NCBI GenBank assembly: GCA_000320545.1
Contig: ADNK01001596.1
Coordinates: 1-64,000 of the forward strand
DNA: 64,000 nt
Direction: 5' to 3'
Origin: Bigelowiella natans CCMP2755
Lineage: Eukaryota > Protista > Cercozoa
This document shows positions 14,946 through 37,929 of this stretch, in pieces. Made by a program: the position numbers and the translations under genes. The notes below the pieces were generated by a model. It was not told the origin of the DNA, ran no database searches, and saw only the letters and a list, made by a program, of their open reading frames with translations. Within the stretch, counting starts at the first letter, position 1; every line of letters starts with the position of its first letter.

Positions 14946-15113
14946 TGTCTGCTCGTGTGCGCAAGGCACCTGATCCTGGAGCCTTTGTGTCGCATTGAAC
15001 TTGTGATTGAAGTCGAAGTTTCCAAGTGTTCCGTCAAGTTTGTGCAAGTGCACAAAGATTGCAACGTGGAGTCAGTTTTGCGACGTCCGCAAATTGAAAA
15101 AAGGGGGGAATGA

Positions 15114-15538
15114 TGCAACGGCGGAAAATTCAAAGGAATTTGACCGTTGAAAGTGGTCAATTTTGGAAGTCAATCCCGTTGAAATGCCCTGCAGTTTTGG
15201 CAGTTTTGGGTGGAGTTGGTGCTGTTGGTTGGTTGATTGGCAAATTGAGTCATCAAATGGGAAGCAAGTGGTTTGGGAAAAACCAAGTTTGTGTGCACGC
15301 AGCTGCCTCGATTGGTCAATGGCAGCGAACCCGCACCTGGCAGTCAGTTCGCTAGAAGTTTGAAAGCGGTCAGTGTGTTTGTTTGAGCGTGCACATGCGT
15401 GTGTTCTGAAGTCACCAATGTCATCAGGGTTCATTGTTCATTGGAAAGTTTGATTGTTTTTGCTGAGTGAGCGGCGACGAGCGTGCTGGTTTGGCAGAGG
15501 CAGAAGCCGACACTGGGAGATTGCTTTCAGCTGTCGCA
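15114..15538 (+). repeat. 3' LTR of element A
   Basis: Preceded by a purine tract and followed by TSD ACAGG. Confidence 0.95.
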
Positions 15539-16796
15539 ACAGGTGCATGTGAAGTGCGTGATGTGCACACGTCGTGGACGTCTGCACGTGCATGGACATG
15601 CATGTCCCCAGCACATGGACACAACAGTGATTGGCTAGTTGGGCAGACCAGCAGACACCCAGACCCATCGTCTAGCTGGAGACGTTGTTGTTGCATGCAC
15701 TGCAACTCTGGACTGGCAGGGCTTGCTTCAATGACAGTGCTAGCCAGCTAGCACAGTGCTCTGGAGCTCCAGAGTTTCTTGCGCGTCAGAACTGGACAGC
15801 GCCAGAGCGTCACCGCGTCCACAGGAGTCACCGCGTTGCCGCACCACGCACCACCATCCACCCAGCCATCCATGCCAGACATTCTGCTGGTCTGGTCCAG
15901 TGGTGCTGGAGTGTGCTGGTGTGATTTGAAGTGCATGCCAGCACGTGAGATGCGGCGCCACGTGTGATGTGCGTCCAGGCTAGTGGGTGCTGGCGATCCA
16001 GCTAGCATGTCAGCAGCGGTGGTCATCTAGTCGTCTCTGGACCCAGTCACGTGATGGACTGGCACGATCTAGCGATGCCTGCGCTTGCGCCACGGTGAAA
16101 CCTCAAACCTTAGCTAGCTTTGCTTGATGGGCTTGTGCCACGTTTCAATGAATCACGTTGAGCACGTGCGCGCATGCATTCAGACGAAACGTGATGCCCA
16201 ACACAGATGCGTGTGATGCATGGGACAATGCATTCGATGATGACAGCCTGCGGTGCCATGTTGAATGTGATGGCAACAGCATGTGCACGTGTGGCAGCAG
16301 CAAGCAAAGCAATGTGGTCAATCAACAATTTGAGCAAGACCAGAAGAGACAAAGTGCACACTTGCAAGTGTGTGCGTGTCCCTGACTTTGCATGCACGAT
16401 CAAAACATCAATTGAAGCCGAACCAAATCCAAAATGTCAAATTCCATCGCGCAAACCGAGAAACAAGGCGATGAAAGTCCACACTTGTCTGATGAGCGAA
16501 GTCACAGATGGTTGTGCTCGCGACCATGTTTCCCACCATGTTTCCAGACAGAACCTGATGTGTGCACGAAGCAGTCCACACAGCGATGCGAAGACATTCC
16601 CTGTGTTGACATCCAAAAATCCCACCAACCATGCGCCAACAAAATTTGACAATGGTTCAAATTCGAATCCCATGCGGGTGCACACAGGGCAAGCACGGCT
16701 GCTGCATCTAGCGTGCATTGTTGTTTGCATGAATGCATCTTGATGCACAAAGCGGACAAATCGTGTACACAATCCAATGTGGCTTTCATGATGTTA

Positions 16797-18362
16797 TTAC
16801 TCGTCGATGGCTTCGATGAAATCCCTCAAAACTTGGCATTTGTCCAAACACTTGGTGAAGCATGATTCGCATTTTGTATTCAAGCAATCACAATCTTCTA
16901 GTAAACATTTTTTGCAGCCGGGCTCATTGATGGATTTTGAGTTAGGTCGGAAGTGATATCTCATTAGCTTTTTGAAGTTTGCCGCAAAATGTGCGCCGAA
17001 GACCCGTTGAAACGGGGACTTTGAAACTTTTTTCCACTTCCTCTTGTCTCCCTTCCCAACCAAAAGCTTGTAATGTAGGTGACCTTTCCTGTAATATAGT
17101 TTATGCCCAGGAAGAATCTCCCCACCCATTCCATATGTATCCATTTTCCAATCTTTTGCTCCGGGTTTGCTCATATTCCAGAGTTCGTAAATTCCTTCAC
17201 GATCACCCATAATGTACTCTGATACCCTTCCATCTGGCATTTCAAGACATGAATTATGTACTGGAAACGAGGTGTTCAAGGACGCTTCAGGTGGGGCACG
17301 AATCCAGTCCTTAGCGCATAAACCATTAGACTGTAATCCAAGAGGCCTGGTATGCTCGTTTGCCCAACATTCAAACTCTTCAGGCTTTGTGCCTTCATAT
17401 GTGTATGAAATCAATGCATGTATGTCACTATACCAGTACTGAAGCCCCTCTAACACATATCTAGTAAGATCGGCAGCCGAACGATGGGTGAAAAGCGAGT
17501 AGATCCCATTGCACACCGGATGGTAGCAGCAGATTGCAATCTCGGCATCGTCTCCAAATCTGTCAAAATATCTTGTTGAATCTGTCCATGCCATCATATC
17601 ATGATCAAGAAGATTGAAGCGCGCCGGCCATTCGATGTCAGGGTCGCCGACTATCAGCCATCGCATCATCGCGGACTGCCACAACCAGCCACTTCTTTTC
17701 ACATAGCTATCAGGCTTAGCGTTTGGCATCATGCGACAATACAGATTGCCAATTTTCTGAAACCCAAGATCCACATATTCGACAAAATGCTTCGAAGCAA
17801 ACGCCTTGCAGCTGCCTCCGGCCTCATAGAGGTACACCACCGGGTTAAATTGTTTTGCTTGAAGCATTGCAATTTTTAGGTGCTCTGGGCATATTTTTGG
17901 AGAAGCCAGTGCTTTTTCACACAATGTGATATTGAGAATAGCAGTCGTATAATTGCAGTAGGAATGGGAGCAACGCTGAATGTTGAGGAATGCAGGTGGA
18001 GTGTGCTTTACCCCGTACATTCTGATCAAATTCAATGCTGATTGTTAGATCTAAAACCATTAGAACATGAACCCTGACTGTGACGAAAACTCAGGCAAAA
18101 TCTTGAAATGTAATCATCATGCATATACATATATACATCGCACGTAGATTTCACTCGAAGATAACAGAATCGATGCATTGAAGGTGGAGACAAACCTAAT
18201 TTCTGAAGTGATCGCCCCCTCCTTCGGGCCATCTTTCGTTGTTATCGTGCGCACGGGGACTGTTTCTTCCTCATGCACCCCACAGTCGAAGTAGTTGAAT
18301 CCTGTGAGACAAATGACTGTGGCTGCCAATGCAACTGCAGCCAAAAAAATGTCTTTTCGCAT
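16797..18362 (-). CDS. Type II membrane protein, probable GT-A fold glycosyltransferase-like
   Basis: N-terminal anchor MRKDIFLAAVALAATVICLTGF (ATG at 18362), a probable short intron, then a 412-aa ORF with MMRWLIV...LLDHDMM (DxD motif) and a Cys-rich tail. Normal Tyr and TA content. Confidence 0.6.
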
Positions 18363-19248
18363 ATTTCTACGAGTTTCGGAGCCTGTGAGCACAGCCAGAC
18401 ACAATTATGTTGCAGGCCGGTGTGTGGGGCGGGCAAACGATGTCTCTCCACTATGACCCGCAACTTGTGTGAATTTGTGTGAGGTACGAGTCACGTCATT
18501 TTCCTTACAACTGCAACTTCGAACGACTGCGAAAAATTAACTTCAAAAAATGATGACAATTATGCACAAACGTCAGATGAAACAATGAAAAAAAATTGCA
18601 AACGGACTGCATTTGAAAGCAAGTGCAGAGGGAGTTCCCACTAGATCTACTCCCTCGGTTGCCCATTCGCTACCGCAGCCCTTAATCCTATGGGAAGTTA
18701 CACACTTCCGATTAATGTTGGCACGCGCCAACGCGCCCATGCATGTGCGACATCAATTTTTAATTGTCGCATGCAGGACATAGACTAGGATAGCATCAAT
18801 GATACACTATGAATCCTATGCCGGTACAATGTAGTCTAGTCCAATTAATCGTCCGATGGGATTTATTTGTCCGATGGGACGACAACCTCAATTTCACCTC
18901 AACGACTCCGAAGAGTTCGTTGTTCTGAGCTTGTTTTGTCAGTTACCATCACTTGATTTTCACCTCAAAATGCAGGTCAAATTGTGGTGAAAGACATCTT
19001 TTGTGTGCACAAATTCAATTTTTTACGGTTAAAAAATTTGAATTTTAACAACGCTCCCCCCTCACCACCTTTTTCATCATGCGAAAAAGCCACCGTGTGG
19101 GGCGATCACGGGGCAGCGTGAACAAAGAAAAGCACGCACACGACTTGTTAGTCCTTGAGGAGTCGTGTGGGAAGATGAGGGATGGTCTGGCGGGTCTGAG
19201 TCAAATGTTCAAAAATGAACGCAAGGCGTTGAAATGCGTCCGTGTGCG

Positions 19249-19574
19249 TGTTGCGCGTAAGGTGTTCACAGGCCGAGGCGCTACGTGCACAAGTAGGCAG
19301 GGGGGGGGAAAGGCACGTTTGCTTCCTTTTGAAGAGTTGTGTTTATTTTTATTAAAGATTATATTTTTATTAAATCGTGCACTGCGTAATCATTCGCGAA
19401 GCTTTCGCGAATGCCGCCGCACGTGGGGCAGCACACTTCCGGTGTGCTGCCATGAGTCCCGCCGGAACCCACGTGCCTATGCTGTATTAATATCTACGTT
19501 ATCTATATTCTATATCCGCGACAACCCCTTTGTTGTCGCACGTGACTTGTGCCCGCGTAGTGGTACGCGCTACA
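19249..19574 (-). repeat. 3' LTR of element C
   Basis: Identical by eye to 24639-24964, with near-inverted termini TGTTGCGCGTA...TACGCGCTACA. Confidence 0.96.
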
Positions 19575-19625
19575 CCTCCCCCAAGTCACGTTGCTCCTTC
19601 CTTCCTTCCTTATTCCCTTAGACCT

Positions 19626-22600
19626 TCATCGCTTTCGGAACTTCACCAACCACCAGGTAATAGATTCCTCTCTAACCTTATCTCCTTTGTCGCTTACCCA
19701 GAACTCACCTTCGTCCTTAGGTTCGTGTCCATACCAGCCCTCTGCATCAAGGTCCCCCAGGACCTTATACCAGTGCTCAAAGGGTAAGTCGGGAACAGCT
19801 AGGTAGAGTAGCTGATATTTTCCGTCCTTTATTTTCATAGCTACCCTCTCCATATTTCGTAATCCAGGGTAGCCTAGATAGACAATCTTCATGCGCCAAT
19901 CGTCGTTCACCCTGACCTTATTGTTTCCATATTCCACATCGAACTTAGGTCGGGGTCCTAAACAAGGCATTGCTCGCTCCCACACAGTAGGGTTTACTTT
20001 AACATCCTCTAGGAGCTTCTCACCGATATCATAATTCTTTAGGTGACTGATGTGGCGCAAGGTGACCCTGTTCCCATCATAGATGTAGTACTGCTTCCTC
20101 CCCTTCCTCTCGGTAACCTTTGCAACGCCACCCCAGAAGGGGTCTTGTTTATTTCTCGATCTCAGATTTACCTTGGCCCTAACATACTGTCCTTCCTTTA
20201 GAACTCGGCCATCGTACGGGACCTTCTCGTCTTCGCTCTCGGTATCGTCGTCGTTGTCGTCGCCTTCTTCCCTCTCCTTATCCTTGATACCTCCCCCAGA
20301 CGTGAAGGTGTCGTTTACTAACCCTTGTATCTTGTCTGGTGTGGTGCTATTTATCCTGCTTAGGTTGGCCAAGGTGCGGTGGAGTCGCTCTACCTTGGAG
20401 TTGGACTGGGCATAGTATACAGGTGAGGCATCAATATTAGGGTGTGGTAGCTGTAGAAGAGAGGTCTCATTATCCACATGTAACTTCTTTGGTATCTTGT
20501 TTATGCTAACTTCATCAGGGATAGCCTGGAGCTCAGACTCCCAGGTACGGTAGCAGTTAGTAAGCCTCTGCTTATATAAGCCTTTGTTCTTCTTAGCAAC
20601 GTTGACCTTGATAATCTTTTTAACCCAGCACTTTCCAGTGGCCACATCAACGAAGGTAAGGTAGTGATAGCCATCGTACTTATAAACATCAATTTGCACG
20701 ATATCTAAGAAGTTCCTTGCTTTGATTTTCTTAGATGCACGGCTCTTGCTGGACTCCTTGGTGGCGACGCCTGCCGCCTTCAAGCTGGAGCACCTGCAGC
20801 CACGCAGGTATGTCCTTATCTCTTTTAGCTTGTAGGGCCAGTAGTAATGGTAGAGTAGAGCAGTGATATGGTTTTCTCCTACGTGTGCAGGTCCATGGGC
20901 GGTAAAGAGAAGGGCTCCCCTGGTCCGCCGTGGCACGTAGGTACGCCTAACATTATTAGTGTATACATATATCCTATCACTAAGTACCTCATGCTTGTGT
21001 TTGTATTTATCCAGGTGTTCTTGAAGGTGCTGGAGCTCCTCTGGCTCAGGCAGGAAGTCGCCGTCCTCGAAGGTAATCGCGTTAACCATAGGGGTGACCT
21101 GGGTAGGGACTTTCTTTTCGAACAGCCTGCTGAAATAGTCAGCAAGCTGCTTGTCTCCTGGTGCGTAGACCACTGTCCTCTTGTCCCTAAACTCTTCCGT
21201 GTCCGCCCTCATAGCTGCATACTCATCGTTAGGCGCTTCGAGCTTGCGGTCGATGCCTAGGAGGGGCTTGTGGTCAGTCATTAAGGTGAAGCTGGGCACC
21301 GACAGCAGGTAGTATCTTAGTTTCCTCTGCGCCTCAGTCATGGCTTTATACTCTCCTTTTGTAGGGCTGTACTTGGCCTCAGCTGCTGTGCAGGCCCTGC
21401 CCCACACCCGTATGATCTGCTGGTCTTGGGTAAGTACAGCAGCCATACCTAGCTTAGACCAGTCTGTCCATAGGGTAGCTGGTCTAGTAGTGTCTAGCTT
21501 AGCATTCAATAGGGTGTTGCTGCATAACTTTATTAGGTTATCGAAGTGGGCATCAAGGCCAGCCTTGGCCCACACCTTAGCGAAGCTGAGGCCTACAGAG
21601 TTCTCCTTCCGGTAAGCAGTAGTAAAAGCAGCTGCAGTCCTAGCGTAGGTAGGGGAGAACCTACGTAGTATCCAAGCTGCAGTCTGCAAGAATGACTTTA
21701 ACTCCTTTGCATTCTTAGGTTTAGGGGCTTGCTGTAGTGCTGCTACTTTCTCGGGGTTTGGGGTGATGCGGCCTTGCTCCAGGTAATATCCACACCACTT
21801 GATTCTTGTAGCTAGGAATGTACACTTCTGCAGTCTAATAGTAAAACCGAAGTGTGCAAACCTAATAAATATATTTTCCAGGAGGAAGATCTGAGCGACG
21901 ACTGTGTTGGTACATATTATGTCATCATCCACATACACAAACACAAACACCCACAACACAGACGCCATCCCATCATGTGTGTATGCCCTGTAGTTCTGAC
22001 TACTGAACGCATCCCCTGATATGCTTAGGCCGTAAGGGAATACGACGAAGTGCCACTTCCTGTGCCTGCTGGAGAACGCGGTAATGGGGCGGGAGGTTTT
22101 GTGGATGGGTGTCTGCATGTATGATTCATTTTTATCTAGGGAAGAGTAGTATTTGTATCCTATGACGTGTTCAATAACGTCATCTATCCTTGGTGTAGGT
22201 GTCTGGATCCTCTTTATTACTCGGTTGTGGCGGATGAAGTTGTGCGCCAGGCGGAAGAAAGGGTAAGTAGGTTTCTTAGCTAGCACATGTCTCACGTTCC
22301 ATGGTGAGTTGCTTGGCTCTATCTTCCCTTCCTTTGCCCATTCATTGATCTGCCACTCTATCTTTTCCCAGTCCGCTTCCGGTCGCCTATGTTCTGGGTC
22401 ATTGATGATGCACTCTTCGTATCCCTTCTTTAGCTCGATCTTTACTGGGGTAAGCTTGCTGGAGGGCTTCGTCGTCGGCTTGGTGATGTCAGAGTACTTC
22501 TCGTTTAATATTTTATTAATGTACTTTTTGCCTTTGTCGATATCCCAATCATCAGCTGGGGGGGTCTTGTCCAGTAGCTCCGTTATCTGTCGGATGGTCT

Positions 22601-24599
22601 TGCCGGGGTTCTTCTTCCGTAGCTCGGTAGGTGTAGGTAGCTTGTTGTCCGCTAGGTCCATAAACTCTAACGCATTAACGCTTGACTCAGAGGTCCACTC
22701 GTCAAGCCGTATCATGTTCTGGCTGATGGTCCTGCCTGACTTCTTTGGCAACTTAGCAAAGTATATCTTGTGATTGTAGAATGATATGATCCCCCCTAAT
22801 TTTTCTAGGGCATCCTGTCCGAGGAGTAGTTCCATGGATAAAGTCATGGCTACTCGGGTCTTGATTTGGGTCTCCGCGTCGCTGCCAGGTATCTGTAGCT
22901 TTAGCATTAGCTCACCGACGGTCTTCATGGAAGAGCTTCCGTCTGCTTGAGCATATTTACGTTCTTTCTTAGTCACTTGATCCAATAGTCCTAACCTTCT
23001 TACTGTGCTTAGGCTTATGAAGGACTTCGGCATGCTGCCACTATCCCAAAGGGCAGGTAGTTTCTTGTAGTCTCCGTAGCTGTCTTTAACTTTAACCTTG
23101 GTCATAGCAACTTTGATAGTCCTGTTAGCGTCTTCGTCATTAATGTTGCATACTCCTAAGTTCTTTATGTCGTCTAGGGTCATGGGCTTGTCTTGGTCCT
23201 GCGTTGCTGGTACTGCTGTCTTCGTCGGCGCCTGCTTAAGGTGATCTAATATTCCGTTTATCTGCTGCTGTATAGCATTGATACTGTTCTGCTTTTTGTT
23301 CTTATATTTATTGTTCTTCCCGTTGTTGCTGCCTTGCCATTTGCTGTTGTTATATCCTTGTCCTCTGCCTTTCTTTCTCTTTAACTTCTCGTAGTGTTCG
23401 TTGAGCTGCCTGATCGTCATCCTGGGTCGTCCTTCTTTCCTGTCTCTGCAGTCTTTAGCGGTGTGTTTCCCTTTACGTGAGCAGTATCCGCAACGTCGGT
23501 TACCTTCCCTGTCCTTGTACCAGTCTCGCTGCGGCTTAATAGCGTTAATGTTTCCTATGCCAGGTACCTTAGGGCTGGTAAACTTGCGGTCCTGCTCCTG
23601 CTCGCGTAGGGATATAGCCTGCACTGCTGCCTCCATCGTGGTGTAGCCTTTCTCCGTAACGTAAGTGGATTCCTTTATCTTTAACTTGAACTCTTCAAAC
23701 CTTGCCTGATCATCACCTGTGTTGTAATTAAAATCATGTAGTTCGTCGATCATATCCTGGAAGCGCGTGGCAAAGTCTCTAACAGGTTCTCTCTCATGCT
23801 GCATCATTGCTCTGTATTTTCTAATAGCCTGGGGTAGGGAGTTAGCATCCTGTTCATTTACAAAAGCCTTCATTATCGCCTCAACGTCTCGTAGCCCACT
23901 AACTGTAGTGTGTATTTTCTCTAGCTGCCTGATCCGGGTCCTGCCTGTCTCGTAAAGGTCCATGGCTTGCTTTATTATAGCTAGCCATTTGAGCTTGTCG
24001 TTTTCGGTGGGGTTAGGGGTAAAGTCGCAGAGTATACTCCTAGCGTTCTTCCACCACCTCCTTGCCTCACCTCTTTTCCCGTTGTATTTCGTTATCATAA
24101 CCGGTGCTGTTTTAACAGACATGAACTGGGTGTTCCGCTGTACCGGCTGCTGCTGCTTGACGGTGCTCTGGGTCGTCCCCCGCGAGGCGCCCAGACCCCC
24201 GTCGTTCCTAAACAAAGCTGCCCACTCTGGAGGTAAGTCTGCTTCGTAATCCATGATGTCCTGCATGATAGCTGCCCAAACATCATGTGTCTGATACTTG
24301 TATTCTATCGATACTTTCAGTTTGGCGTAGTTGCTCGCCCTGGGTCGCAAGGCTCGTAATGCCATTACGACCTTCTTGCTTTCGGCGGCCACGTCCTCGT
24401 CGTCCGCCTCGTAGAAGTTCTCCAGTGCCTCTGCTGCTGCATCTGCTTTCTTAATCCCGGGTGCTGGTCCCGGCGGTGCCTGTGGAGGTGTTCCTCCTCC
24501 TTCCTTAGCGTCCGTATCGCCCTTCCTTTCCTGTTTCTGCTCGTGCCCTTGCACGGCCTGCGAGCCAAAGTCCTGCTGTTCTTCTAGCTGCTGTGACAT
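19626..24599 (-). CDS. Gag-Pol polyprotein of element C (1657 aa)
   Basis: Zinc knuckle CGYCSRKGKHTAKDC, protease ALWDSGS, RT FPYGL and YVDD, RNase H TDWS...TDHKPL, integrase core, SH3-like CTD and an extra C-terminal domain. Confidence 0.96.
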   Translation of the reverse strand: MSQQLEEQQDFGSQAVQGHEQKQERKGDTDAKEGGGTPPQAPPGPAPGIKKADAAAEALENFYEADDEDVAAESKKVVMALRALRPRASNYAKLKVSIEYKYQTHDVWAAIMQDIMDYEADLPPEWAALFRNDGGLGASRGTTQSTVKQQQPVQRNTQFMSVKTAPVMITKYNGKRGEARRWWKNARSILCDFTPNPTENDKLKWLAIIKQAMDLYETGRTRIRQLEKIHTTVSGLRDVEAIMKAFVNEQDANSLPQAIRKYRAMMQHEREPVRDFATRFQDMIDELHDFNYNTGDDQARFEEFKLKIKESTYVTEKGYTTMEAAVQAISLREQEQDRKFTSPKVPGIGNINAIKPQRDWYKDREGNRRCGYCSRKGKHTAKDCRDRKEGRPRMTIRQLNEHYEKLKRKKGRGQGYNNSKWQGSNNGKNNKYKNKKQNSINAIQQQINGILDHLKQAPTKTAVPATQDQDKPMTLDDIKNLGVCNINDEDANRTIKVAMTKVKVKDSYGDYKKLPALWDSGSMPKSFISLSTVRRLGLLDQVTKKERKYAQADGSSSMKTVGELMLKLQIPGSDAETQIKTRVAMTLSMELLLGQDALEKLGGIISFYNHKIYFAKLPKKSGRTISQNMIRLDEWTSESSVNALEFMDLADNKLPTPTELRKKNPGKTIRQITELLDKTPPADDWDIDKGKKYINKILNEKYSDITKPTTKPSSKLTPVKIELKKGYEECIINDPEHRRPEADWEKIEWQINEWAKEGKIEPSNSPWNVRHVLAKKPTYPFFRLAHNFIRHNRVIKRIQTPTPRIDDVIEHVIGYKYYSSLDKNESYMQTPIHKTSRPITAFSSRHRKWHFVVFPYGLSISGDAFSSQNYRAYTHDGMASVLWVFVFVYVDDDIICTNTVVAQIFLLENIFIRFAHFGFTIRLQKCTFLATRIKWCGYYLEQGRITPNPEKVAALQQAPKPKNAKELKSFLQTAAWILRRFSPTYARTAAAFTTAYRKENSVGLSFAKVWAKAGLDAHFDNLIKLCSNTLLNAKLDTTRPATLWTDWSKLGMAAVLTQDQQIIRVWGRACTAAEAKYSPTKGEYKAMTEAQRKLRYYLLSVPSFTLMTDHKPLLGIDRKLEAPNDEYAAMRADTEEFRDKRTVVYAPGDKQLADYFSRLFEKKVPTQVTPMVNAITFEDGDFLPEPEELQHLQEHLDKYKHKHEVLSDRIYVYTNNVRRTYVPRRTRGALLFTAHGPAHVGENHITALLYHYYWPYKLKEIRTYLRGCRCSSLKAAGVATKESSKSRASKKIKARNFLDIVQIDVYKYDGYHYLTFVDVATGKCWVKKIIKVNVAKKNKGLYKQRLTNCYRTWESELQAIPDEVSINKIPKKLHVDNETSLLQLPHPNIDASPVYYAQSNSKVERLHRTLANLSRINSTTPDKIQGLVNDTFTSGGGIKDKEREEGDDNDDDTESEDEKVPYDGRVLKEGQYVRAKVNLRSRNKQDPFWGGVAKVTERKGRKQYYIYDGNRVTLRHISHLKNYDIGEKLLEDVKVNPTVWERAMPCLGPRPKFDVEYGNNKVRVNDDWRMKIVYLGYPGLRNMERVAMKIKDGKYQLLYLAVPDLPFEHWYKVLGDLDAEGWYGHEPKDEGEFWVSDKGDKVREESITWWLVKFRKR

Positions 24600-24638
24600 T
24601 GTTAGTCAAATCGTTTCCCGTGTGTGGAAGCCAAAGGT

Positions 24639-24964
24639 TGTTGCGCGTAAGGTGTTCACAGGCCGAGGCGCTACGTGCACAAGTAGGCAGGGGGGGGGAA
24701 AGGCACGTTTGCTTCCTTTTGAAGAGTTGTGTTTATTTTTATTAAAGATTATATTTTTATTAAATCGTGCACTGCGTAATCATTCGCGAAGCTTTCGCGA
24801 ATGCCGCCGCACGTGGGGCAGCACACTTCCGGTGTGCTGCCATGAGTCCCGCCGGAACCCACGTGCCTATGCTGTATTAATATCTACGTTATCTATATTC
24901 TATATCCGCGACAACCCCTTTGTTGTCGCACGTGACTTGTGCCCGCGTAGTGGTACGCGCTACA
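24639..24964 (-). repeat. 5' LTR of element C
   Basis: Followed on the minus strand by PBS TGGCTTCCAC. Confidence 0.96.
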
Positions 24965-26019
24965 TGCGTCCATCGTCGGGGAGCCAGTTCCTGACCCCGT
25001 CGCCAATGTCTGAACCCTCTGCTTCCACCCCTGCATCGACTACTTCGTCTTCAAGTTGTTCCACGTGCGATTCCACGTCAAAAAGACTGACAGAGGTCAT
25101 TGGTCCGCTTGATGTCGATGGTGACCGCATCGGCAGCAAGCTCCGTCGTTCCACCAGAAAATCCAATTTCTCTGCATCATCGGTTAGTTCGTCGTCGTCT
25201 AGGGCTTCTTCCCGCACAAGTGTGAGTATGATCGAGGACGATGTTGTTGCTGTGGTGGGGTGCAATGCAGTGTTGTCCACAAGAAAGGCAGCTGTCCGAG
25301 GTCCCACCTCGAACAGATTCGGAACAAATGCTGGCAAAAGGGAAGTGTCCAGCAAGGAGTTGAATCTGCCCGATCCTCGAGATTTGACTGCACCGGCTAA
25401 AAAAAGGACAGCGGCAGAAGTGATCCGCAAATGCACGCCCCGCAGGAAGGCATCTGTGATGAATCAGACAGCTGCATGGGCTGGCATGAGCAAAAGAAAT
25501 GCTGGACGATGGTGGAACAATGTGTGGAATGCTTCTGAAGGGGATCTAGTTTCGGATGTGTTGCAGGCCAGAGGCCAGCCACCGAAATTGAAGAAAAGCA
25601 TGATGTCGAGAGTGTGCAAGGAGGTGGTGAACGACAACACGGGTGCAAGCAGCAATGTGAAGTTTGCTGTGACAGAAAACGACACATTGCGCCGAATGGA
25701 TGAGCTGGTGGAGGAAGAAGCGAGGAGGAAGAACAAACGTGCATCAAGGGCCAAGATGGGCAGATCCACGAAGTGCGTGATGCTCAGTGCGATGAGCCTC
25801 ATCACCAACACCAAGAGACGCGTGAAGTGCAAAACCCAGTCCAGAACAACCGCCGAGTCTTCTCTGAGGAATCTGGTGTCTTGCTGCTGTGAAAAAACGC
25901 AAGGTGTTGAAATGGGTGCAATGTCAACCCAAATGAAGATTGCAACGATGGACACAGTGACATCACACGTGATGTGCATGTGGTGTTGCACGTTGTCTGC
26001 AATGAGCATCCCCTTGTGA

Positions 26020-26369
26020 TGCATGTGGTGCTGACGTGCATGCATTGCAGCAGCAGCAGCAGTGGCAGTGGTCATTGTGGTGCTGCATGTGGTGCTGACG
26101 TGCATGCATTGCAGCAGCAGCAGCAGCAGTGGTGGTGGTCATTGTGGTGCTGCACACGGTGCTGACGTGCATGCATTGCAGCAGCAGCAGCAGTGGTGGT
26201 GGTCATTGCGGTGCTGCATGTGGTGCTGACGTGCATGCATTGCAGCAGCAGCAGCAGCAGCAGTGGTCATTGTGGTGCTGCATGTGGTGCTGACGTGCAT
26301 GCATTGCAGCAGCAGCAGCAGCAGCAGTGGTCATTGTGGTGCTGCACGTGGTGCTGACGTGCATGCATT
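26020..26369. repeat. Minisatellite with a unit of about 60 bp containing a variable (GCA)n run; left part
   Basis: Repeats of TGCATGTGGTGCTGACGTGCATGCATT(GCA)nGTGGTCATTGTGGTGC. Confidence 0.9.
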
Positions 26370-26883
26370 TGATGTGCGCCATGCTGTTGGAGCTGCGCCA
26401 TTTCTCTGCTGAGACGCTCAACCCTGCAGCAAGTGAGCAGCAGCAAGCTCAATCCTTTGGCTAGACAAGTTGCAATCCAAACATCCTTCCACATGGATGC
26501 AGCTCAGCTTCAAGGACATCGATCCTTGAAGCACAATTTGGTCATCAGACATTGGTTTAGATGCAGCTCCAGTCATCAGCGCAGACGCAATCCACCGGGA
26601 GCTAGTGCTCCGTGGATGTGGTCAGCACAGTGCAGTTGGCACGATGTGGTGACGACAATCCTCTGACGGGATGTCGTGGTCCTTGTCGCAAGGAACAATG
26701 TCGCGATCAGCGCCCTTGCGACAGCACATCATGTTGACACGTGCTGACAGCCGAAGCTTCTCGAAAGCTTCGGGAAACAATTCGGAACATCAATTTGCGC
26801 GCCAAATGCTGTCAATGCGCAAACATGTAACGGAAGTAAATCGTGATCAGAATTGAAATGGACAAGTGCCTTCGCGCATCACA
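26370..26883 (+). repeat. 5' LTR of element B
   Basis: Matches 31893-32406 with a few transition-only differences. Confidence 0.95.
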
Positions 26884-26932
26884 AATTGGCTTCCACTCTA
26901 GGAAATTTTTTTTTGCCCCCCCGGACCCTCCC

Positions 26933-29900
26933 ATGACCCCTCTTGACACCGCCGTTGACGCTGCAGTGGCCTTCACGAAGGATCCCACCGACAGCAAGGC
27001 GGTGCAGCACGCCCTCAGCGCCCTCACGCCGAATCCCATCTTTCACGAGTCACTTCGTCAGGGTGTGGAGAAGGCTACGGACGCTCGCATGTTTGGAGCT
27101 TTCAGGTTGATGTTGATTGAGGCCATCCCGGAGGGACAACCTCGCCAAGCTAACGTCAGTGCTACTAACTTGCAACTTTGGCGCACCTTCTTCGCTACGG
27201 ACAACGGTAACTCGTTGCCCGTAGACGATGCTGATGCTGTTAAGTCCCCCTCTGCTGACAGTGAACGGGGCCAGCAAATGCAACCTAAAGTCAGAATCAA
27301 ATCCACGAATGACATCAACAAAGTTAGTGTTACCCTCCCGAAGTTTAATGGCTCGAGAGGTAAATGTACTCGTTGGTGGAAGAAGGTTAGAAAGACTTTA
27401 GAAAGTACTTACCCCGGTTTCGACTCGAAGGAAAAGAACCAGTGGTTACCTGTGATCCGGGGTTGCCTTCAAGGATGCCAAGCGGGTTACGAGAGACTCG
27501 AGCAATGCGAGGATCGAGAACCTAAGTTGATTGGCACGGTAGATAAGTTAGATGTTTACCTGCTCATGGAGAAGTTCGTGAAATCTTACGATCGGAACTC
27601 CAAGGGCCACTTGCTTCAGGAGTGGCGGGCGCTATCCCAGAACGATCGCGAGCTTATCGATGACTTCAAGACTCGCTTCTTCGGATTAGTCGCCGACCTA
27701 AAAGAGCAAGGTCACGTGATCCCACCTAATCAACTTTGTGATTACTTTAGGGACATGTGCAAAGAGTCCGCTACTTTGCGTATCAAGAAGAAAGAAATCA
27801 CCGACATCGATGCAGCTGTGGACTACATCGCGGAAATTGAAGCGAATGCTGTCAAAGGCACGTCGAAAGGTCTACATGATATACCCCGATCTGATCGAGC
27901 CGGTGGAAATGAAGGTACGAAAGAGACGTTTACCGACAGAAAAGGTAAAGTTAGGTGTACCCATTGCTGCGGGTTGAAGCACGGGCAGTCCCAGTGTTAT
28001 CGCCGTAAGAAAGGGAAACCTAAAGTGACGTTGAAAGAGAGAATTAACTTAGAGGACCAAAGGGATAAACGTAGGAACGGTCATAACGGGAGAAAGGGAA
28101 ACTTGAGGGGAAACTTGAACAATGCATCTCAGGTTCTTCAGCAGCAGGTGGAGAAGCAGGGCAAAGCGATGAACACGTTGCTAACGATGCTCGGGGGAGG
28201 TAAGGAGGCTCCGCAGGAGCCGACCCTCCAGGACGTACGTTCTATGCTTCACGCTGTATCACCTTGCGAGGCCGCGGGGCCTCCTCCGGATGCCGCTGAT
28301 GTCCCGCCCGTTGATCATGTGCCCAGCGCTGAGGATTGCAAACCAGCTTCAGCCCCTACCCCGACCCCTTCTCTACAAAGCGCTAACTCTCTTCACGGCA
28401 GCCGCAAAGTGTCCATGACGAACATCGGCTTGCGTAACTCAAAGGGACAGTTTGATACCTTTGCTGCCCTCTGGGATTCTGGTGCCATGCCCGAGTCACA
28501 TGTCAACCTGCACACAGTCAAGGCATTAGGCCTGCAGAGGTTGGTCAAGGTGCATCGAGAGAATCACAAGAACGCTCAAGACCAGTCGACTTTCTCGACC
28601 ATCGGTTCCATCGAGCTTGAGGTCAACCTCAATGGTGAGGTTGTGCCTTGCACCTTCAAGGTTGCCCCTGTTCATGTGAACATCATTCTGGGACAGGGAT
28701 TTTTGGAATTAGTGGGAGGGGTCATCAATGTGGTGAACCATGCTGTTACCTGTCTCCGCATTATCGCGACGCGTCCAGCAACCCATGATCAAAGCATCGG
28801 AGTGGAAATCAGTCGGCAACATTGGAGCTGAGGATTGCATGAATGGTTTGCCGCCTCCTGAAGAATGCCGCAAGATGCATCCAGGGAAGAACCTGCGCCA
28901 GACAGCGGAGATCCTCGAGCGGACTCCGCCGAACGATGACCTAACGGTGGAGCAGGGGCGGGAACATGTGAAGCATTTGCTCGATGCGAAATGCAAAAGC
29001 ATTGCCGTGCCGAGATCTTCTCCTTCTCCGCACATGCGCCCTGTGCGCCTGCGACTCAAAGAGGGGTACGAGGATGTCATTGTCAATGTGCCTCCTCGCC
29101 CGAGGCCGGACCGCGACTGGGACCGGATCGAGAACCAGGTTGCGGAGTGGGAGCGCCAAGGGAAAGTGGTCCCCACCACTTCTGCCTGGAATGCCCCGCA
29201 CGTCGTCGCCGCTAAGTCTGCACCCCCTCATTTTGGACTAGCGCAAGATCACAGGAGAGTCAACAAAGTGTTGGCACCTGCAAAGTTCCCGCTTCACCGG
29301 ATCGATCTCATCGTCGACGATCAGGCGCGGAAAAAGATTGAATCTGTTCTGGATCAGATGGAGGCACACATGCAGACGCCGGTCCACAAGAGGGACCAGT
29401 TCATGCTCGCCTTCAGTGCTAGGAAGGGCAAGCACATGTTCACTGTGCTGCCCCACGGGATGAAGGTGTCGGGGGACCTGCACACGCAGCGGAAGTTCGA
29501 GATCCAGTCCTCCGATGGCGGTTCCGTCCTCCTGTGGCATTTCACATTTTCACATGTTGATGATGACGCAGCAGGTGCAGACACGGTTGCAGCACACACT
29601 TTCATCATGCAGTGCATGTTGGACAGGTTCCTGAAATTCGGGACAGTGATCCGTCCGGAGAAGTGCGAGTGGCTGAAAAAGGAAGTTGTGCATTTGGGTC
29701 ATTCAGTTGGCGACGGTGTTGTGCGCCCTGACCCTGAGAGCCTTGCCGCGTTTGACAGTCTTCCTGAACGCCCCCTGAACCACAAGGAGTTGCGTCGGTT
29801 CCTCGGCATGGCCCAGTGGCACCTCAAGCGCTTCGCCCCCGAATGTGCAGAGTGTGCGGCCGTCCTGTCCTCCACCTGCAACAGAAAGCCTGACTCGGAA

Positions 29901-31874
29901 AGTCCTCTCGCGGAAACGTGGAACGCAGCCTGCCAGTCGGCGCATGATGGGATCATCGCCATGTGCAAGTCTGACCTTCAGAACAAAGCATTCGACAAAT
30001 CCTGCCAGTCCTCGCAGGTCTGGTTTGACTGGAGCAAGTCAGGTGTCAGTGCGGTGCTGGTGCAAGATGGTGAGGTGGTCAGGGCACATGGGCGAGCCTG
30101 CAATCCTGCAGAATCTCGCTGCTCCCCCACCAAAGGCGAACTCCTCGCTTTCACCGAAGCCCAGCTCCACTTCCGTCCCCAGCTCCTCAGTCTGGATGGC
30201 TTCCTGATGGTGACGGATCACCGACCGCTCCTAGGTGTCATTGAGAAATTGGATTTGGACAATGAAAACCTTGCCTCCCTCAGGGTTGAAACTGAGGAGT
30301 TCAGGGACAGGCGGACGCTGGTGCATGTCAAGGGCGACTCCAATCTGTCGGACATCTGGTCAAGGATGTGGCCAAGTGAGACGACAGAAGAGGGCTCCCT
30401 GACCAATGTGGTTTGCAGCATCACCCTTGAGGGGGGCGATTTCAAGCTGCGGAGCGAGGACCGTCGGGATCTCAGCGAGCGGAGAGAGAAATGTGGGTTG
30501 GTGCACCAAGTCTCTGATGCGCACGCTGAGGTCACAACTGAAGACACGCAGAGGACACACGTGCCTGCTCGCAGTCGCCGTTCTCTGCTCTGCAGTCTCC
30601 ATCTCCCTGATCATCAGGGGGAGCACACTCTCATCCGCAGGCTCCAGCCTCACTGCATTCCTAACAAGCAGGAATGCGTGCGGGAGTTTCTGAAGCACTG
30701 CACCTGTTGCACCTCTGAGCCGCAGACACTTCTCCGCCGCGAGTCCCCCAAGTCCAAGCAACAGTCTGTTGTCCAAGCGGACAAGCACTTGGACGTGGTG
30801 CAACTAGACGTGTGCTCTTGTGGGGACCAGAACCACCTCACGTTTGCGGATGTCAAAACGAAGAGGGCATGGGTCAGGAAGCTGCTCAAGAAGGGCGCCG
30901 CGAAAAAGAACAAGGGCGCCCACAAACGCAAAACACTGGAACAGTGTGTGATCTGGGAGTCCAGCTTGGGCCAGACACCCAAGCAGTTGCGGATGGACAA
31001 TGAGGATGCGTTGATCGCTGTTCCTCACAAGAACATCCGCGCTCACCCGGCTTGCCGTCCCCAGAACAATGGCATCATGGAGAGGGCTCATCAGGAGATT
31101 GCACGTCTGTGCAGGTCGATGAATTCGACCCCTGATGAAGCATGCAAGTGCCTCCGTGTCAACTTGGAACCCCTCAAGCCTGCATTTGAAGCTGGGGGAG
31201 GCGAGGAGCACAAGATGAAATGTGGGCTAGCTTCAAAGCAAGCTCAGCCGTCAGCCAACATTGCCACGGCGTCGGCACATGACGGTAGGACTCTCGAACC
31301 GGGAAGCTTGGTGCTCGTCAAAGTGCACTCCCGCTCCCGGAAGAAAAGCGATCCTGCATGGGCAGGACCGTTTGAGGTGCAGAGTCGTGCCTCCACCAAG
31401 TCACACTTCCTGAAGCGCAATGACAGGCTGTCTCACCGTCATTTCGACGATGTGAAACCGTTCTCCTTGGCCGACGAGACTTTCAAAGACTCCAAGGTGA
31501 ACCCTGTTGCATTCGAAAAAGGGAAAAGCTGCTCAGGTGAGATGCCAAAGAGCTTCGACGTGAAGTGTGAGAACCTGAATGCGGACTGCTCCGGGGACTG
31601 GAAAGGCAAGACCGTGTGGTTGGGACATCCGGGAGGGGAAGAGCTTGAACGAGTTGTGTCCAAGTTGAAGCTACGAGGCTTCAAGTCAGCCGTGCTCGTC
31701 GTCCCCGAAGTTCCCTTCCGTGATTGGTGTGCCACGTTGGAGGGCATTCGGAACGCCCGTTGGCACGGAGTAGAGCCTGGAGATGAACACCAGTTTTGGG
31801 TGGACTCTTCGAGCCGCCCCCACTGCAAGCCCCCTGTTGCTTGGTGGGTTGTGAGGATGGCTGGCAAAGGGTGA
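26933..31874 (+). pseudogene. gag-pol of element B (frameshift near 28750; RT motif HVDD)
   Basis: ORFs 26843-28831 and 28740-31874 with ALWDSGA, LPHGM, HVDD, FDWSK, TDHRPL and integrase. Only one Tyr seen in the 1044-aa pol ORF. Confidence 0.92.
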
Positions 31875-31892
31875 ATTCGCGTCTGGGGGAGG

Positions 31893-32406
31893 TGATGTGC
31901 GCCACGCTGTTGGAGCTGCGCCATTTCTCTGCTGAGACGCTCAACCCTGCAGCAAGTGAGCAGCAGCAAGCTCAATCCTTTGGCTAGACAAGTTGCAATC
32001 CAAACATCCTTCCACATGGATGCAGCTCAGCTTCAAGGACATCGATCCTTGAAGCACAGTTTGGTCATCAGACATTGGTTTGGATGTGGCTCCAGTCATC
32101 AGCGCAGACGCAATCCACCGGGAGCTAGTGCTCCGTGGATGTGGTCAGCACAGTGCAGTTGGCACGATGTGGTGACGACAATCCTCTGACGGGATGTCGT
32201 GGTCCTTGTCGCAAGGAACAATGTCGCGATCAGCGCCCTTGCGACAGCACATCATGTTGACACGTGCTGACAGCCGAAGCTTCTCGAAAGCTTCGGGAAA
32301 CAATTCGGAACATCAATTTGCGCGCCAAATGCTGTCAATGCGCAAACATGCAACGGAAGCAAATCGTGATTGGAATTGAAATGGACAAGTGCCTTCGCGC
32401 ATTGCA
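31893..32406 (+). repeat. 3' LTR of element B
   Basis: Follows the PPT and is followed by TSD CATT. Confidence 0.95.
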
Positions 32407-32507
32407 CATTGCAGCAGCAGCAGCAGCAGCAGTGGTCATTGTGGTGCTGCGTGTGGTGCTGACGTGCATGCATTGCAGCAGCAGCAGCAGCAGCAGTGGT
32501 GGTCATT
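32407..32507. repeat. Minisatellite, right part (split by element B)
   Basis: The same unit resumes exactly after the TSD. Confidence 0.88.
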
Positions 32508-32943
32508 GAAAGTTGCATTCAATCAACAGTTTCCGGTGGTGCGAATTCGTCCCAATGGTGGAAGGTGGGATCACGGTTGCCCTCGTCACACGAGCAGTCA
32601 ACAAAATGTTTTTCACAGGCGCGAGATTGTCCACCCCCCTGACTGTGTTCCTGATGTGCCCAATGTGCTTCCCGCCATGATGACAATTGACCGACTTTCC
32701 ATCAGGTGCATTGTGATTGTCCACGATGCGCAAACTCACCAACGAACCGCCAATTGGTGGGTCACGCAAACCAGTTTTGTCATCCTTCTTGATCCAGACA
32801 GTGGCAGTGTGAGCATGAGTTGCCACGGTGCTCGCATCAGCAGTGTTGGTGCCAACTCTCTTGATTTCTGTGGGCTTCATTTTTTTGGGCTTGCAAACGT
32901 TCAGCGAACTTTGTTTGATTTCTCCCATGGTCTGAACACACAC
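32503..32943 (-). pseudogene. HIRAN-like domain ORF inside element D, hypermutated
   Basis: VSLRIVDNHNAPDGKSVNCHHGGKHIGHI resembles the HIRAN pattern LxxxxxNxxDxxAIxVxxxxxxIGY[IV] if His is read as former Tyr. Confidence 0.4.
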
Positions 32944-34236
32944 GTGTGAACATCATGAACCCCATGAACACATGAAAACCCAATCACCTTCCGTTCATTG
33001 ACGACAGACGATGCCTTCCTGACGGGGTCCATGCCACTGTCGCCCTGTGGCATGCCACCAAAAATCAATTTCACTCAAATGGTCCTTGACCACCAAAACA
33101 CATGCACCACGCAACAATGTGCACACCAGACGTCAGAGGGCGAGGACCACTTGATTTGTGACACCTCAAGAGATGCAGAAGGGGGGTCTGATGTGGGCTT
33201 GGTGATGCAAGGGTCGGCCATTGTTTGCATTTCAAGGCTCCCGTGTTTGCTTTTTGAAACTGTCACTTTGAAATTGCGTGTTTTTTTTTTGGTGAAATTG
33301 CGCATTGACACTCGTTGATGAATGAAATTGATCTTTTCCGAAAACACCCAATTCCAACCCCAATGATGCACATGAATGTGGGGCATTTCGTCCAAAATTG
33401 CCATCGGACGAATGAGTCCCATCGGACGATCAATTGGACTGGTGAGAGTTCTGTTGACTGCATCGATCGCACCCCCAACAAGATCTCGTCCAGATGTGCG
33501 GAACAAGGTCCCTCGCTGCTCGTTGATGAATGCACAGGGGAGGTTGGCCCAAGACACGGATGAAAATTGACAACACTTTGACTCCGGAAGTGTGGCTCTG
33601 TTTCACATCGGAGTTGAACCAGCGCAAAGAGCACATTTTTTTCTGGGCAAGCACGTGGAGCTTTCATGCTCAAAGCACAGTGGGCATGTGTGCATGTGTT
33701 GAGAAAGATGTGGAGGTTTCTGTCAAACATTCTTTCACGTGGTGAGTTTGGGACAAACGACAAGCCTGAATGAACAATGTTTGGGAACATTGGCCAAAAG
33801 GAACCACGTTGTTTTGTCTTTGTTCAGGTGAAAATCGCATTGCATTCAAACTGAGCGGCCATCCGGGCGACAAATGGCAACGTGTGACTCGTCACATGGG
33901 CTCACTGCCTCGTGTGAGCTTTCAGGACCTTGAAGGGGGAGCCAGTTTGCATGGGCGGTTTTCCCTTCAATTTTGTCCATTTCACCGACCATCCACAACG
34001 AATCGTTGCATGCCCCCCTCCTGTGACCACGTTTCTGGGCATGCAACTCACGTCACGTGCCCCCATGTGACCAACCAACACACGGGAACGTCAGCCTGAA
34101 CCCATGTGAACATTCTCACGTGCAAATGCAAGGTGCAACAAAGCACAACGTGCACTGCCATTTGCACTTGTGCACGTGCATGCGCGCTCACATGCACTTG
34201 GTGGTCGCAAACTGACCACAGAGTCGTCTTTTTTGT

Positions 34237-35847
34237 TTGCATCACTGCAGCCTCAGTTCTGATGTCGTCTGTGTTTCAGGGTCCAAGTGCCTCACAAGTC
34301 TTTTCGTGAAGAAGTGTGACCTGTCATCGTGGGGGGCATTGTGCGAGAAGTTTCAAGTTCCCCAGAACGACAAGTGGCTCAGTTTCGCAATCGAGTTCCA
34401 CCTTGTTGAAAACAAGATGGCTCCAGAGAAGAACAAGCGGGTCGTTCCAGACGTTGCATTGAACAGTTTCCAGAATTGTGTTGACCAATGCAAAGCAAGA
34501 CGCACGATGGAGGATGCAGAAAGAACTCAACTCAAGGGAGATGCGATCGACCTCAACGTCCTCACCGGAGTCGTCGTCGAGAAACCAGGGATCGTCGTGC
34601 AATCGAAGGGCGCAAATCAACAGGTGTGCACTTCTTTTCAAAGTTGCGAAAATGCCAGCACGTTCGAAACTCTGTGTTTTTTGTCAGGTCACGTCTTCGT
34701 TGACACTCTCATTGGAGCTTTTGACATCGGGCAGCCTTTCGACGACAAGACTCTCAACATCCACGTCAACAAGATGCACGCTGGCAAACAGCTGGATGTG
34801 GATCGCCACATTGCTGGCAACTTCACCCTCACCATTCGGTGTCTCCCTGAAAACTCCAACTCTTTCAGGGAGATCATCGGCAATTTTGGGCACGACGACG
34901 TCGACGTGCTCCATGCACACGAGCACGATCGACGTCCACAAAAGCCTGAGACCTCTTTCGCTCCGATGATTGACGCACACATCATCGCGAAGAACGGGTG
35001 TTGCGCGCATGTGGACTTGGGGAAGCGCGAGAACCTCACCATCACTTCGAGTCCAAAGGTCACCACCGTGGAAGGCAAGTCTTTCACGGTGGACAGAAAA
35101 GGCGATGTGATGGAACACCTGTGCTCCACTTTTTGCGAGGAGAGATCTGCTGTCCCAATTGCCCACGGTGGACAAGGGTTCGACGCGTGTGCACTGTTGC
35201 ACCACACACGCAACTGCACTCAGTTGAACCGTCACCGGGTGATTGCCAACTTCACCAAGGCCAAAGTCCACTCGATGACTGCCAAGGATGATCCATCTTC
35301 TCAGAAAGAGCTTTTCCAGACCAAGTTCAATGCCATCTTGACCAAGCACAGTGCCCTTCATCGTTTTGGAAATCACTGGCGTGACCTTGGCCGTTCTGAG
35401 GGGAAGTCGCCCGATGATGCCTCCGACGACGAAGAAACATCTCTGATTGAGCTCGTCAAGAAAAGTGTCAGTCCAACCAAAGGCAAAGGTGAACAACTCA
35501 CTTTGATTGTCACTCGTGCACTGGTGCATTCGCAACCCACACGTTTCTCAGGTGAGAAACGCCCACACACTTTGCGTGCCAGAGTGTCTCCTGCGAAGAA
35601 GGCCAAGACCACCAAGGCTGTGGGCAAGTCCATCAAGCGCCGCACGTCCGACCCTCCGATGTGTCACGTGTGCCAGAAGCCCATCTTGCCCAACGAGGGA
35701 CGAGAATGTGCTGAATGCAAGGACTTTGTCCACAAGGATTGCTTGACCCACAAGAGCACCGAGTTCAAGGCACGCTTCTGTTCTGAAGCGTGCAAAAAAG
35801 CTCACATCAAGATCACTCGCGATGCAGCCAAACTTTGGTCAAAATGA
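34237..35847 (+). pseudogene. Hypermutated 536-aa ORF with a C-terminal PHD-like finger
   Basis: CHVCQKPILPNEGRECAECKDFVHKDC...FCSEAC is a C4HC3-like pattern. No Tyr, no introns, coding-like composition. Confidence 0.6.
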
Positions 35848-37019
35848 AAAAAAAAAAAAAGGTCTGCAATGGCCCATCGTGGCCCATTTCTGCACGTCTC
35901 ATCGCTTTCCTGATGAGAAAAAGCTCCATCTGCAGTCTGTTTTTCCTTTTTTGGCCACGTTGTTTCAATCTCAACTGCATGCATTTTTCAATGTGAAATC
36001 GTTCAATGTGATGTTTGCAAATGCAAATTCTCTTTGATGCATTTCAAAACGCGCTTCACTTTGCAATTTGCTGACTTGCCTCCGTTTGCTCTCGCATCTG
36101 CCATGCACACGTTTGTCACAATGTCCATCATGTTTGATTCGCTGCCCCGTTTGCACGTGTTCATTCTCATGCTGCGCTGCGTTCGCGTTTTTTCCCCGCC
36201 ATGTCATTTCGCGCAATCGCAACTTTGCCTTTTGACAGCGCTCTCAGGCATCACATTTTGCGTCGATCGTGACCATTTTTGCCTCTGAAGTGGACAACCA
36301 AGCGGTGCTGACAGTGGATTGGTGCAAAATCTCAGAAATCCGGCCAAACTAGCAAATCCGATCCTCAGCGGGACCAAAAATCAAAAGGTTTTGCCCGCTT
36401 TTCGGAGGCCGGAAATTGGCTGGAAATTGACGATTTCCGGGATGGTCTTGGTTGGTGCGCAATGTCGAAAACTTCTTGCTGAACAAACTTTGCAAGTTTG
36501 CCGGGCAATCCGTGGATTTCCAAGACGCAAGAGGTTCATGTTCACGGATGCATGCTGCATGGTTGGTGTCAATGACGATGCGCACAGCGACATCGACTCC
36601 GCGCTTTGTGGCCAGAAGCAAGTGCGCACGTGCACTTTGCCAGTCCAAACACACGTGTGTGCAATGTTGCTTTCATGCTTCTGATTCCGTGTGCAGCAAA
36701 ACCAAAGTCGATCGTGCACGGTGCTCCTTCGGGCGAAGCGACCGCACTGGCGTGGATCGGCGCTTGGACGTGGCCCTCAGGAAGTTCCTGCTCAAAGCAC
36801 ACGCTTTGCGTCGCCGCCACATTGCTGCTGGTCACACTGCTCCATCACAGCTAGCCAGCCATTGTGCCAACTTCAAAATCCTGTTGGTCTTCACCGTGCA
36901 GTTGGTCCTCACCAGAGCTTTGCACTTCGTGCATTGCAATCTTCATCATTGTCGTTTTGTTTTTGCTGCTGTGTCATCACCATTGGACCATGACCTGGAG
37001 ACTGCTGCAGTCCAGCACT

Positions 37020-37720
37020 GCTAGACTGCCCAGCTAGCTAGCTGGATCTGCTGGTCCAGACCACCAGACTGTCATCAGCAGAGATCACCCCGCTAGCTAG
37101 CAGCTAGCTAGCTGGCCCGCGATCGCCACCTGCTCTGGTGCTAGTCCACAATGAAATGCCTGTCTCTGGCTAGCTAGGTCCGGATGGACGCGTTGAGCTC
37201 CATCCAGAGCTCTGGAGTTGCAGCAGACAAGCTCTGGAGCTAGCTAGCTAGCAAGTCTAGCTAGCTAGGAGTCAAATGAGTTCGTTCGATTCCAGTCTAC
37301 TAGTGTGATTCGAATCGCATCGCAGATCGCAATCACACAACTCTGGAACTCTAGAACTCCAGCTAGCCAGGCTAGCAGGCTAGCAGGCCTAGACAGCTAG
37401 ACAGGCACACAGCTTTGTAGCTCTGAGCTACTAGACAGCCCTAGCTAGCTAGAGCTAGAGAGCTAGAGAGAGCTCCAGAATGCTAGACTAGCTAGCTAGT
37501 GGAGCATGTCAGCGCTAGAGCGTGGAGCTAGCTAGCTAGCTCTGGTGGAAACCATGGAATGGCTGAATCATCTGGACCATCGCCGTGAGCTGTTTGATCG
37601 GTCCTAGCTAGCTAGCTAGCGCTAGTGCTGTGCGCATCTAAAAATGTAGGCGTCAGCACAAAGCGGACTCATGATGCACTAGCTCTAGAGCTAGCTAGTG
37701 CTAGAGTGCACTAGTGCAGG
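37020..37720. repeat. CTAG-rich low-complexity tract
   Basis: Dense CTAG, CTAGCTAG and AGCTAG words mixed with CTGG and CCAG. Confidence 0.85.
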
Positions 37721-37929
37721 AACAATGTGTTCTTCTCACCATCTATCATCACCACTTAGCTTTTCCGATTTTAGCACAAAATCTAAAAAAGTGTCACTAA
37801 CAAATTCTAGCATGCATGCTTTTGGTTGCCAAAATTCATCATTTAGAGCGGATTTCATTGCATCATCACATGGCATGGATTGAACACTCAGCCTTGAAAT
37901 CTGTGCTACTGATCCGAATTGTACATGAG

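Follow-up and report, generated by a model that had tools for sequence, protein, structure and literature searches.

The 64,000-nt window analyzed here (contig ADNK01001596.1 of Bigelowiella natans CCMP2755, positions 1 to 64,000) is eukaryotic DNA in which we found three Gypsy-type long terminal repeat (LTR) retrotransposons, elements A, B, and C (Table 1). Our main subject is element B, which is inserted in a 64-nt tandem repeat and which, like element A and the DNA flanking both, has lost TpA dinucleotides (TA) to TpG and CpA (TG and CA), a change we refer to as conversion. The elements of the window resemble Ty3/Gypsy elements in their TG...CA LTRs, target duplications of 4-5 nt, primer-binding site (PBS)-like and polypurine tracts, and protease, reverse transcriptase (RT), RNase H, and integrase domains, but they belong to unnamed families, the nearest full-length relatives showing 41-51% identity. 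The Pfam order was RT-RNase H-integrase in A and protease-RT-RNase H-integrase in C, where the protease and integrase matches were weak (E=0.002). Element B scored for RT and RNase H only, and its tail aligned with C and P0001. Element C lies 1.4 kb from B and, with an observed/expected ratio (o/e) for TA of 1.13 and a tyrosine content of 4.5%, was used as the unconverted control and as the outgroup for B. No tRNA gene was found in the window, and a metagenome scan for relatives of B confirmed none of 51 pattern matches. The gag-protease and pol frames of B are split near 28760, and relatives have a single frame; among the variants listed (40 of 487), other B copies are one base shorter near this position.

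Table 1. Coordinates of the elements, their parts, and the surrounding DNA in the window.
Feature	Positions	Strand	Remarks
Element B	26370-32406	+	Gypsy-type LTR retrotransposon, main subject
Element B, 5' LTR	26370-26883	+	514 nt, TG...CA; 5 TA remain
Element B, 3' LTR	31893-32406	+	514 nt; 2 TA remain, both within CTAG
Element B, target-site duplication	26366-26369 and 32407-32410	+	CATT, 4 nt
64-nt tandem repeat, insertion target of B	26016-26369, resumes 32407-32508	+	TA-free
Element B, PBS-like stretch	26887-26902	+	begins TGG just past 5' LTR; one CTAG kept
Element B, gag-protease frame	26933-28831	+	least-converted core ~27481-28460
Element B, pol frame	28737-31874	+	encodes RT and RNase H, followed by an integrase-like tail; a single Tyr in 1037 amino acids
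Element B, polypurine tract	31885-31892	+	ahead of 3' LTR
Non-LTR flank downstream of B	32407-36999		2 TA in 4.6 kb, both CTAG
CTAG-rich edge of converted domain	37000-37730		48/53 TA are CTAG
Left flank of A	7900-8999		17/20 remaining TA are CTAG
Element A	9000-15538	+	Gypsy-type; 5-nt target duplication ACAGG; 5 TA in 6539 nt
Element A, LTRs	9000-9424 and 15114-15538	+	425 nt each
Right flank of A	15539-16760		10/11 remaining TA are CTAG
40-nt inverted repeat, left arm	18838-18877	+	
40-nt inverted repeat, partner	33401-33440		within TA-free DNA
Element C	19249-24964	-	Gypsy-type; identical 326-nt LTRs; single gag-pol frame of 1659 amino acids

Base composition sets apart two multi-kilobase domains, in which TA o/e is 0.01-0.17 and CA and TG are raised, from host DNA beyond them (0.72-0.80). 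Conversion in these domains is not confined to A and B: it includes the flanks of A, the 64-nt tandem repeat, and 4.6 kb of non-LTR DNA downstream of B (TA o/e 0.01 over 32406-36999). Tyrosine is absent from three frames of A, and the RT motif, which is YVDD or YIDD in relatives, reads HVDD in B and RVDD in A. Changes from TA to CA or TG cannot newly make in-frame stops, which accounts for the long, open frames free of Tyr, and all six such frames that we checked terminate in TGA. Judging from the sequence, the loss of Tyr, including that of the RT active site, probably inactivated A and B while their frames stayed open.

Alignment of the two B LTRs revealed 11 differing bases in 8 sites, every one a transition. 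A preliminary description of this DNA had listed six differences, all of which were present. At three of these sites, one LTR retains TA, as had been claimed (5'/3': TA/TG at 26559, TA/CA at 26828 and 26837), and at the other three, the 5' LTR carries CA and the 3' LTR TG (26564-5, 26848-9, and 26880-1). The list was not complete, as it lacked the two sites not involving TA, namely 26382 (cATg/cACg, TG/CG) and 26536 (aAt/aGt). At least three adjacent pairs among 11 randomly placed positions would occur with P=0.0008. The five TA remaining in the 5' LTR comprise two CTAG common to the 3' LTR and the three unconverted sites. The LTRs of A, which hold 1 TA, begin with TGTGAC and TGCAAC as described (TG/CA at 9002-9003); an additional A/G difference at 9353 (aAt/aGt) brings the total to three differing bases. 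Both of the A/G differences away from TA, 26536 in B and 9353 in A, stand in an AAT context, which could be a minor target or background. The B LTR stretches are not assembly errors, as portions of each version recur in contigs of public runs: 26523-26633 (X19, X2) and 26799-26945 (X19) match the 5' LTR with 0 differences, while X1 contigs with difference counts of 4 and 4 carry listed variants consistent with the 3' LTR.

The direction of change was read from coding sequence. We aligned B pol with C and three relatives of 42-51% identity and kept columns in which at least three agreed. All 12 conserved Tyr columns had changed in B, to Cys in seven cases and to His in five. By comparison, 30 Arg columns contained 13 CGN codons that were kept, one His, and 16 AGR arginines or unrelated residues, so that Tyr was kept in 0/12 cases versus 13/14 for CGN Arg (Fisher P=2.7e-6). 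A similar result was obtained for A pol, in which none of the 38 Tyr columns of an alignment with P0022 kept Tyr; the residue was His in 17, Cys in 8, Arg in 2, and another in 11. Paralogues of A and B with 79-90% identity to them include the named B. natans gene models P0004, P0034, and P0037, which makes B. natans or a very close relative the likely host; a search with host genes returned a single weak, unrelated hit and nothing from a chlorarachniophyte. P0004 is a more converted copy of B, and its alignment spans 734 codons; all eight Tyr codons of B read His or Cys in it, while 34/35 CGN codons still encode Arg. Most of the residue differences between B and P0004 (61/76) fit either a change from TA to CA or TG (32) or a CA/TG swap (29), the remainder consisting of 5 that need another state and 10 that are unrelated. 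At the nucleotide level, A-to-G was found at 32/74 scorable TA strand-events, versus 1/174 after A and 2/251 after G, and C-to-T at CpG at only 2/171.

Other copies of B point the same way. At 26564-5, C-to-T occurs in them unaccompanied by A-to-G, giving TA, with a support of 71 versus 28 in X1, 150 versus 0 in X17, and 15 versus 0 in X19 (depths of public-run contigs were not taken as copy number), and a loose contig end in X2 also reads TA. A search of these copies for CG found it at neither of the two scorable CA/TG LTR sites; the second, 26848-9, showed only CA and TG, so that the state expected of an ancestor was recovered at 26564-5 alone. TA is the ancestral state at the converted sites, as the preliminary description had deduced from the CA/TG pairs. 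Its view that CG is disfavored as the ancestor, given the persistence of CpG, was likewise borne out. Decay of methyl-CpG, which would turn a CG into TG in one of the LTRs and into CA in its partner, has such CA-versus-TG pairs as its textbook product. It could also draw on the reverse complement of the A LTR end, TGCGAC, and on the TG/CG site at 26382. However, it is unable to remove TA, 29 CpG are unchanged and common to both B LTRs, the three mismatches of A touch no CG, and no other CG in the A LTRs is discordant. It is moreover Tyr rather than Arg that was lost, and we give this explanation next to no credence. The proposed origin of both A LTR starts from TGTAAC is ambiguous when taken alone, and TA is preferred there since CpG decay is unseen elsewhere.

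Both products were formed, with His and Cys at 5 and 7 Tyr sites in B and at 17 and 8 in A, and no strand-coordinated runs were evident by eye among the 12 B pol Tyr sites. TA, CA, and TG were each found among other B copies at 26558, 26564, 26570, and 26828, and two A paralogues differ from A through Cys/His, Leu/Ser, and like swaps. Each copy and each LTR resolves its TA sites separately. Copies of the 64-nt tandem repeat around B vary between CA, TG, and CG. The arms of the 40-nt inverted repeat differ by four A-to-G/T-to-C changes, two of them at TA.

A process acting before integration, by ADAR-like editing of element RNA or by editing of cDNA as its reverse transcription proceeds or immediately afterwards, could account for a part of these data. 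According to the main text of Mettrop et al. (bioRxiv 10.64898/2026.01.13.699255), ADAR prefers U before the edited A. The near-identical, TA-poor LTRs of A imply that much of their TA was lost before insertion, or that they were homogenized. Editing of RNA or of one cDNA strand would be unidirectional, and it is excluded because both strands changed. LTRs could come to differ if cDNA were edited once it is complete and double-stranded, so the LTR discordance, which had been put forward as proof of chromosomal mutation, disposes of RNA and single-stranded cDNA but not of this last form. This gap is closed by the mutated flanks and by published mutation-accumulation data, since the tandem repeat, the 4.6-kb non-LTR flank, and one inverted-repeat arm are equally converted and the main text of 10.64898/2026.01.13.699255 records such changes arising in chromosomes. 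We therefore consider editing before integration very unlikely. Conversion of the flanks and changes in an inverted-repeat arm indicate that the target was likely chromosomal DNA after insertion. Post-insertion mutation, as originally suggested, is the best reading of the two-strand changes, the flanks, and the mutation-accumulation data.

Conversion is uneven inside B, leaving a gag core of about 1 kb. TA o/e falls from 0.75 (27076-28460) to 0.20 (28461-29300) and 0.07 (29301-31892), and the ratio of TA-to-CA/TG differences to swaps relative to P0004 is 10:9 over 26933-27480, 19:3 over 27481-28460, and 3:17 over 28461-29138. The TA-rich core could instead be a tract of recent gene conversion with a fresh copy as donor, or a mosaic of the assembly, which would bear on the gradient only. 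The B family has several copies and no public-run contig spans B. Against this, conversion changes in steps rather than sharply, and X2 covers the TA alleles at 27874-27883 with no difference among the variants listed (40 of 487); such a tract or mosaic seems somewhat improbable to us. An alternative trigger for the post-insertion loss of TA, in place of a chromatin domain, might be the pairing of repeats, in a mirror image of repeat-induced point mutation (RIP). The LTR pairs, the tandem repeat, and the multicopy families are all converted, and further converted copies exist for both A and B. But the gag core of B is as multicopy as its pol and yet was spared, the perfect LTR pair of C is untouched, conversion extends kilobases into flanks that lack a repeat inside the window, and the principal target in the main text of 10.64898/2026.01.13.699255 is single-copy. 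We consider pairing as the trigger unlikely. The LTRs behaved differently from the coding regions. In each of the four runs, 220 nt of the B LTR (26608-26827) formed a single invariant contig. Together with the TA-poor, near-identical LTRs of A, this leads to the conclusion that LTRs were TA-poor at insertion or homogenized later, and that in coding regions each copy was converted on its own.

CTAG survives conversion preferentially. In nine converted zones, chosen by their TA loss, CTAG accounted for 90/112 surviving TA, versus 128/2367 (5%) in reference zones. Without the flanks rich in CTAG and the spacer between C and B, it still made up 13/22 survivors (P=2e-11; adding up the tabulated classes gives 21). 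Sparing is incomplete: the density of CTAG is 0.5 per kb in A and 3.3 per kb in host DNA, and CCAG stands at 26603 and 26899 in other B copies. A half-site test between B and P0004 found CTA changed in 10/22 and TAG in 6/12 strand-events, near the overall proportion; no half-site asymmetry appeared in these small numbers, B gag being without CTAG. The motif is absent from the accessible text of a chlorarachniophyte giant-virus preprint. Dense CTAG/GCTAGC tracts also border the two converted domains (37000-37730, 8400-8800, and 15630-16120), with up to 66 CTAG per kb versus 3.3 in host DNA, and may be a type of repeat or a boundary sequence.

Taken together, these data make it highly probable that a host TpA-specific A-to-G hypermutation converted TpA to TpG and CpA in A, B, and their flanks after insertion. 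A process of this kind is described in the main text of Mettrop et al. (10.64898/2026.01.13.699255) for viruses (NCLDV, the nucleocytoplasmic large DNA viruses, as well as virophage) integrated in the B. natans nucleus: two integrated viral regions held 231 of 302 de novo mutations, nearly all of them TpA to TpG/CpA at about 1000 times the background. That text further notes that RT domains are enriched in TpA-poor genes, names transposons as potential targets, and proposes an ADAT2-like deaminase as a candidate (ADAT2/ADAT3). The change, its occurrence on both strands, and the nuclear DNA target are the same here, as the species probably is, but conversion is near-complete and has struck LTR retrotransposons of the Gypsy type together with their flanks. 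The window extends the recently reported viral hypermutation to LTR retrotransposons and gives it independent support. CTAG sparing, the gradient within an element, and TA-poor LTRs are undescribed in that main text, in which LTR, retrotranspos, Gypsy, CTAG, and CpG have 0 matches (supplements were outside the search). We found no other papers on the TpA process, in a search whose coverage excluded most subscription papers.

Several observations weigh against this interpretation. TA was seen directly at only one of the three CA/TG LTR sites, and two of the eight B LTR sites, as well as one of the two in A, are not at TA. CG end states exist: Tyr became Arg in 2/27 cases in A pol, and at two positions a CG in B corresponds to TG (26582) or CA (26843) in other copies; for other residues, His became Arg in 2/21 cases and Gln or Trp in 0/45. 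The A LTRs are TA-free but for one TA and yet almost identical, which requires insertion in a TA-poor state or later homogenization. Finally, the main text of 10.64898/2026.01.13.699255 places ongoing hypermutation in only two viral regions; at its rate, the 62 gag TA of B would by hand arithmetic yield about 2 events, though repeats may have been uncallable.

In the most likely mechanism, a host enzyme would deaminate the A in TpA sites of foreign DNA that is silenced. The resulting inosine would be copied as G, yielding TG, or CA when the opposite strand is hit, and each TA site would end as TG or CA at random. Targeting would follow a chromatin domain, that of silenced foreign DNA, rather than repeat pairing; the gag core of B would have been reached last, and C would be too recent to be converted. 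In the accessible text of 10.1101/2025.03.17.643675, transposable elements and repressed genes of B. natans share one H3K9me3/H3K27me3 state. We infer deamination, chromatin guidance, and a defensive role. More tentatively, and with the balance of our judgment against it, a spreading, chromatin-guided, adenine-mutating defense may enter insertions from their edges and move into the flanks. At CTAG, this defense might be blocked by a site-specific DNA mark or binding protein, and resident families, their coding regions still exposed, might have been driven to evolve TA-poor LTRs, in an arms race around a process mirroring RIP.

In ascomycete fungi, RIP hypermutates transposons in the chromosome and spills over into flanks, with C-to-T changes at CpA that create TA. 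The process seen here is alike in its dinucleotide-specific hypermutation of chromosomal transposons and its spread to flanks. It differs in that RIP targets cytosine, makes TA, and fills frames with stops, whereas here adenine is the target, frames stay open, and TA is lost in A and B, with no TA gain of the RIP type. APOBEC3 and ADAR are comparable as deamination-type hypermutators of retroelements with a neighbor-base preference, but their substrates are single-stranded cDNA or RNA, and their signatures affect one strand and are confined to the element, in contrast to the changes on both strands and in flanking DNA found here.

The window displays the stages side by side, from untouched C through partly converted B to fully converted A. 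CTAG sparing offers a testable fingerprint for candidate enzymes and is the most useful new lead, and the gradient in B provides a 6-kb site for studying how targeting spreads. Dating by LTR divergence would mislead for such elements. With rates from the main text of 10.64898/2026.01.13.699255, our own arithmetic gives about 1.1e-5 changes per TA per generation and 90-99% conversion in 2-4e5 generations; at the background rate, the 11 LTR differences of B would imply 3e7 generations.

Several further features deserve mention. Tyr makes up just 0.4-1.1% of the A pol relatives P0024, P0035, and P0071, the last of which is a B. natans gene model; P0024 and P0035 are metagenome proteins that may stem from other organisms with the same process. 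Element C, intact at the edge of a converted domain, is a candidate recent or active retrotransposon. The 40-nt inverted repeat encloses C, the tandem repeat, and B, and its arms may mark where an older DNA element, entered by both retrotransposons, begins and ends. TA-free DNA at 34216-35847 contains a Tyr-free frame of 543 amino acids that has a C1/PHD-like finger at its C terminus (Pfam E=3e-5). A tyrosine-rich frame of 415 amino acids without a Pfam match (16797-18044, minus strand), situated between the two converted domains, is unconverted save near its 3' end, the loss of TA starting at about 16760.

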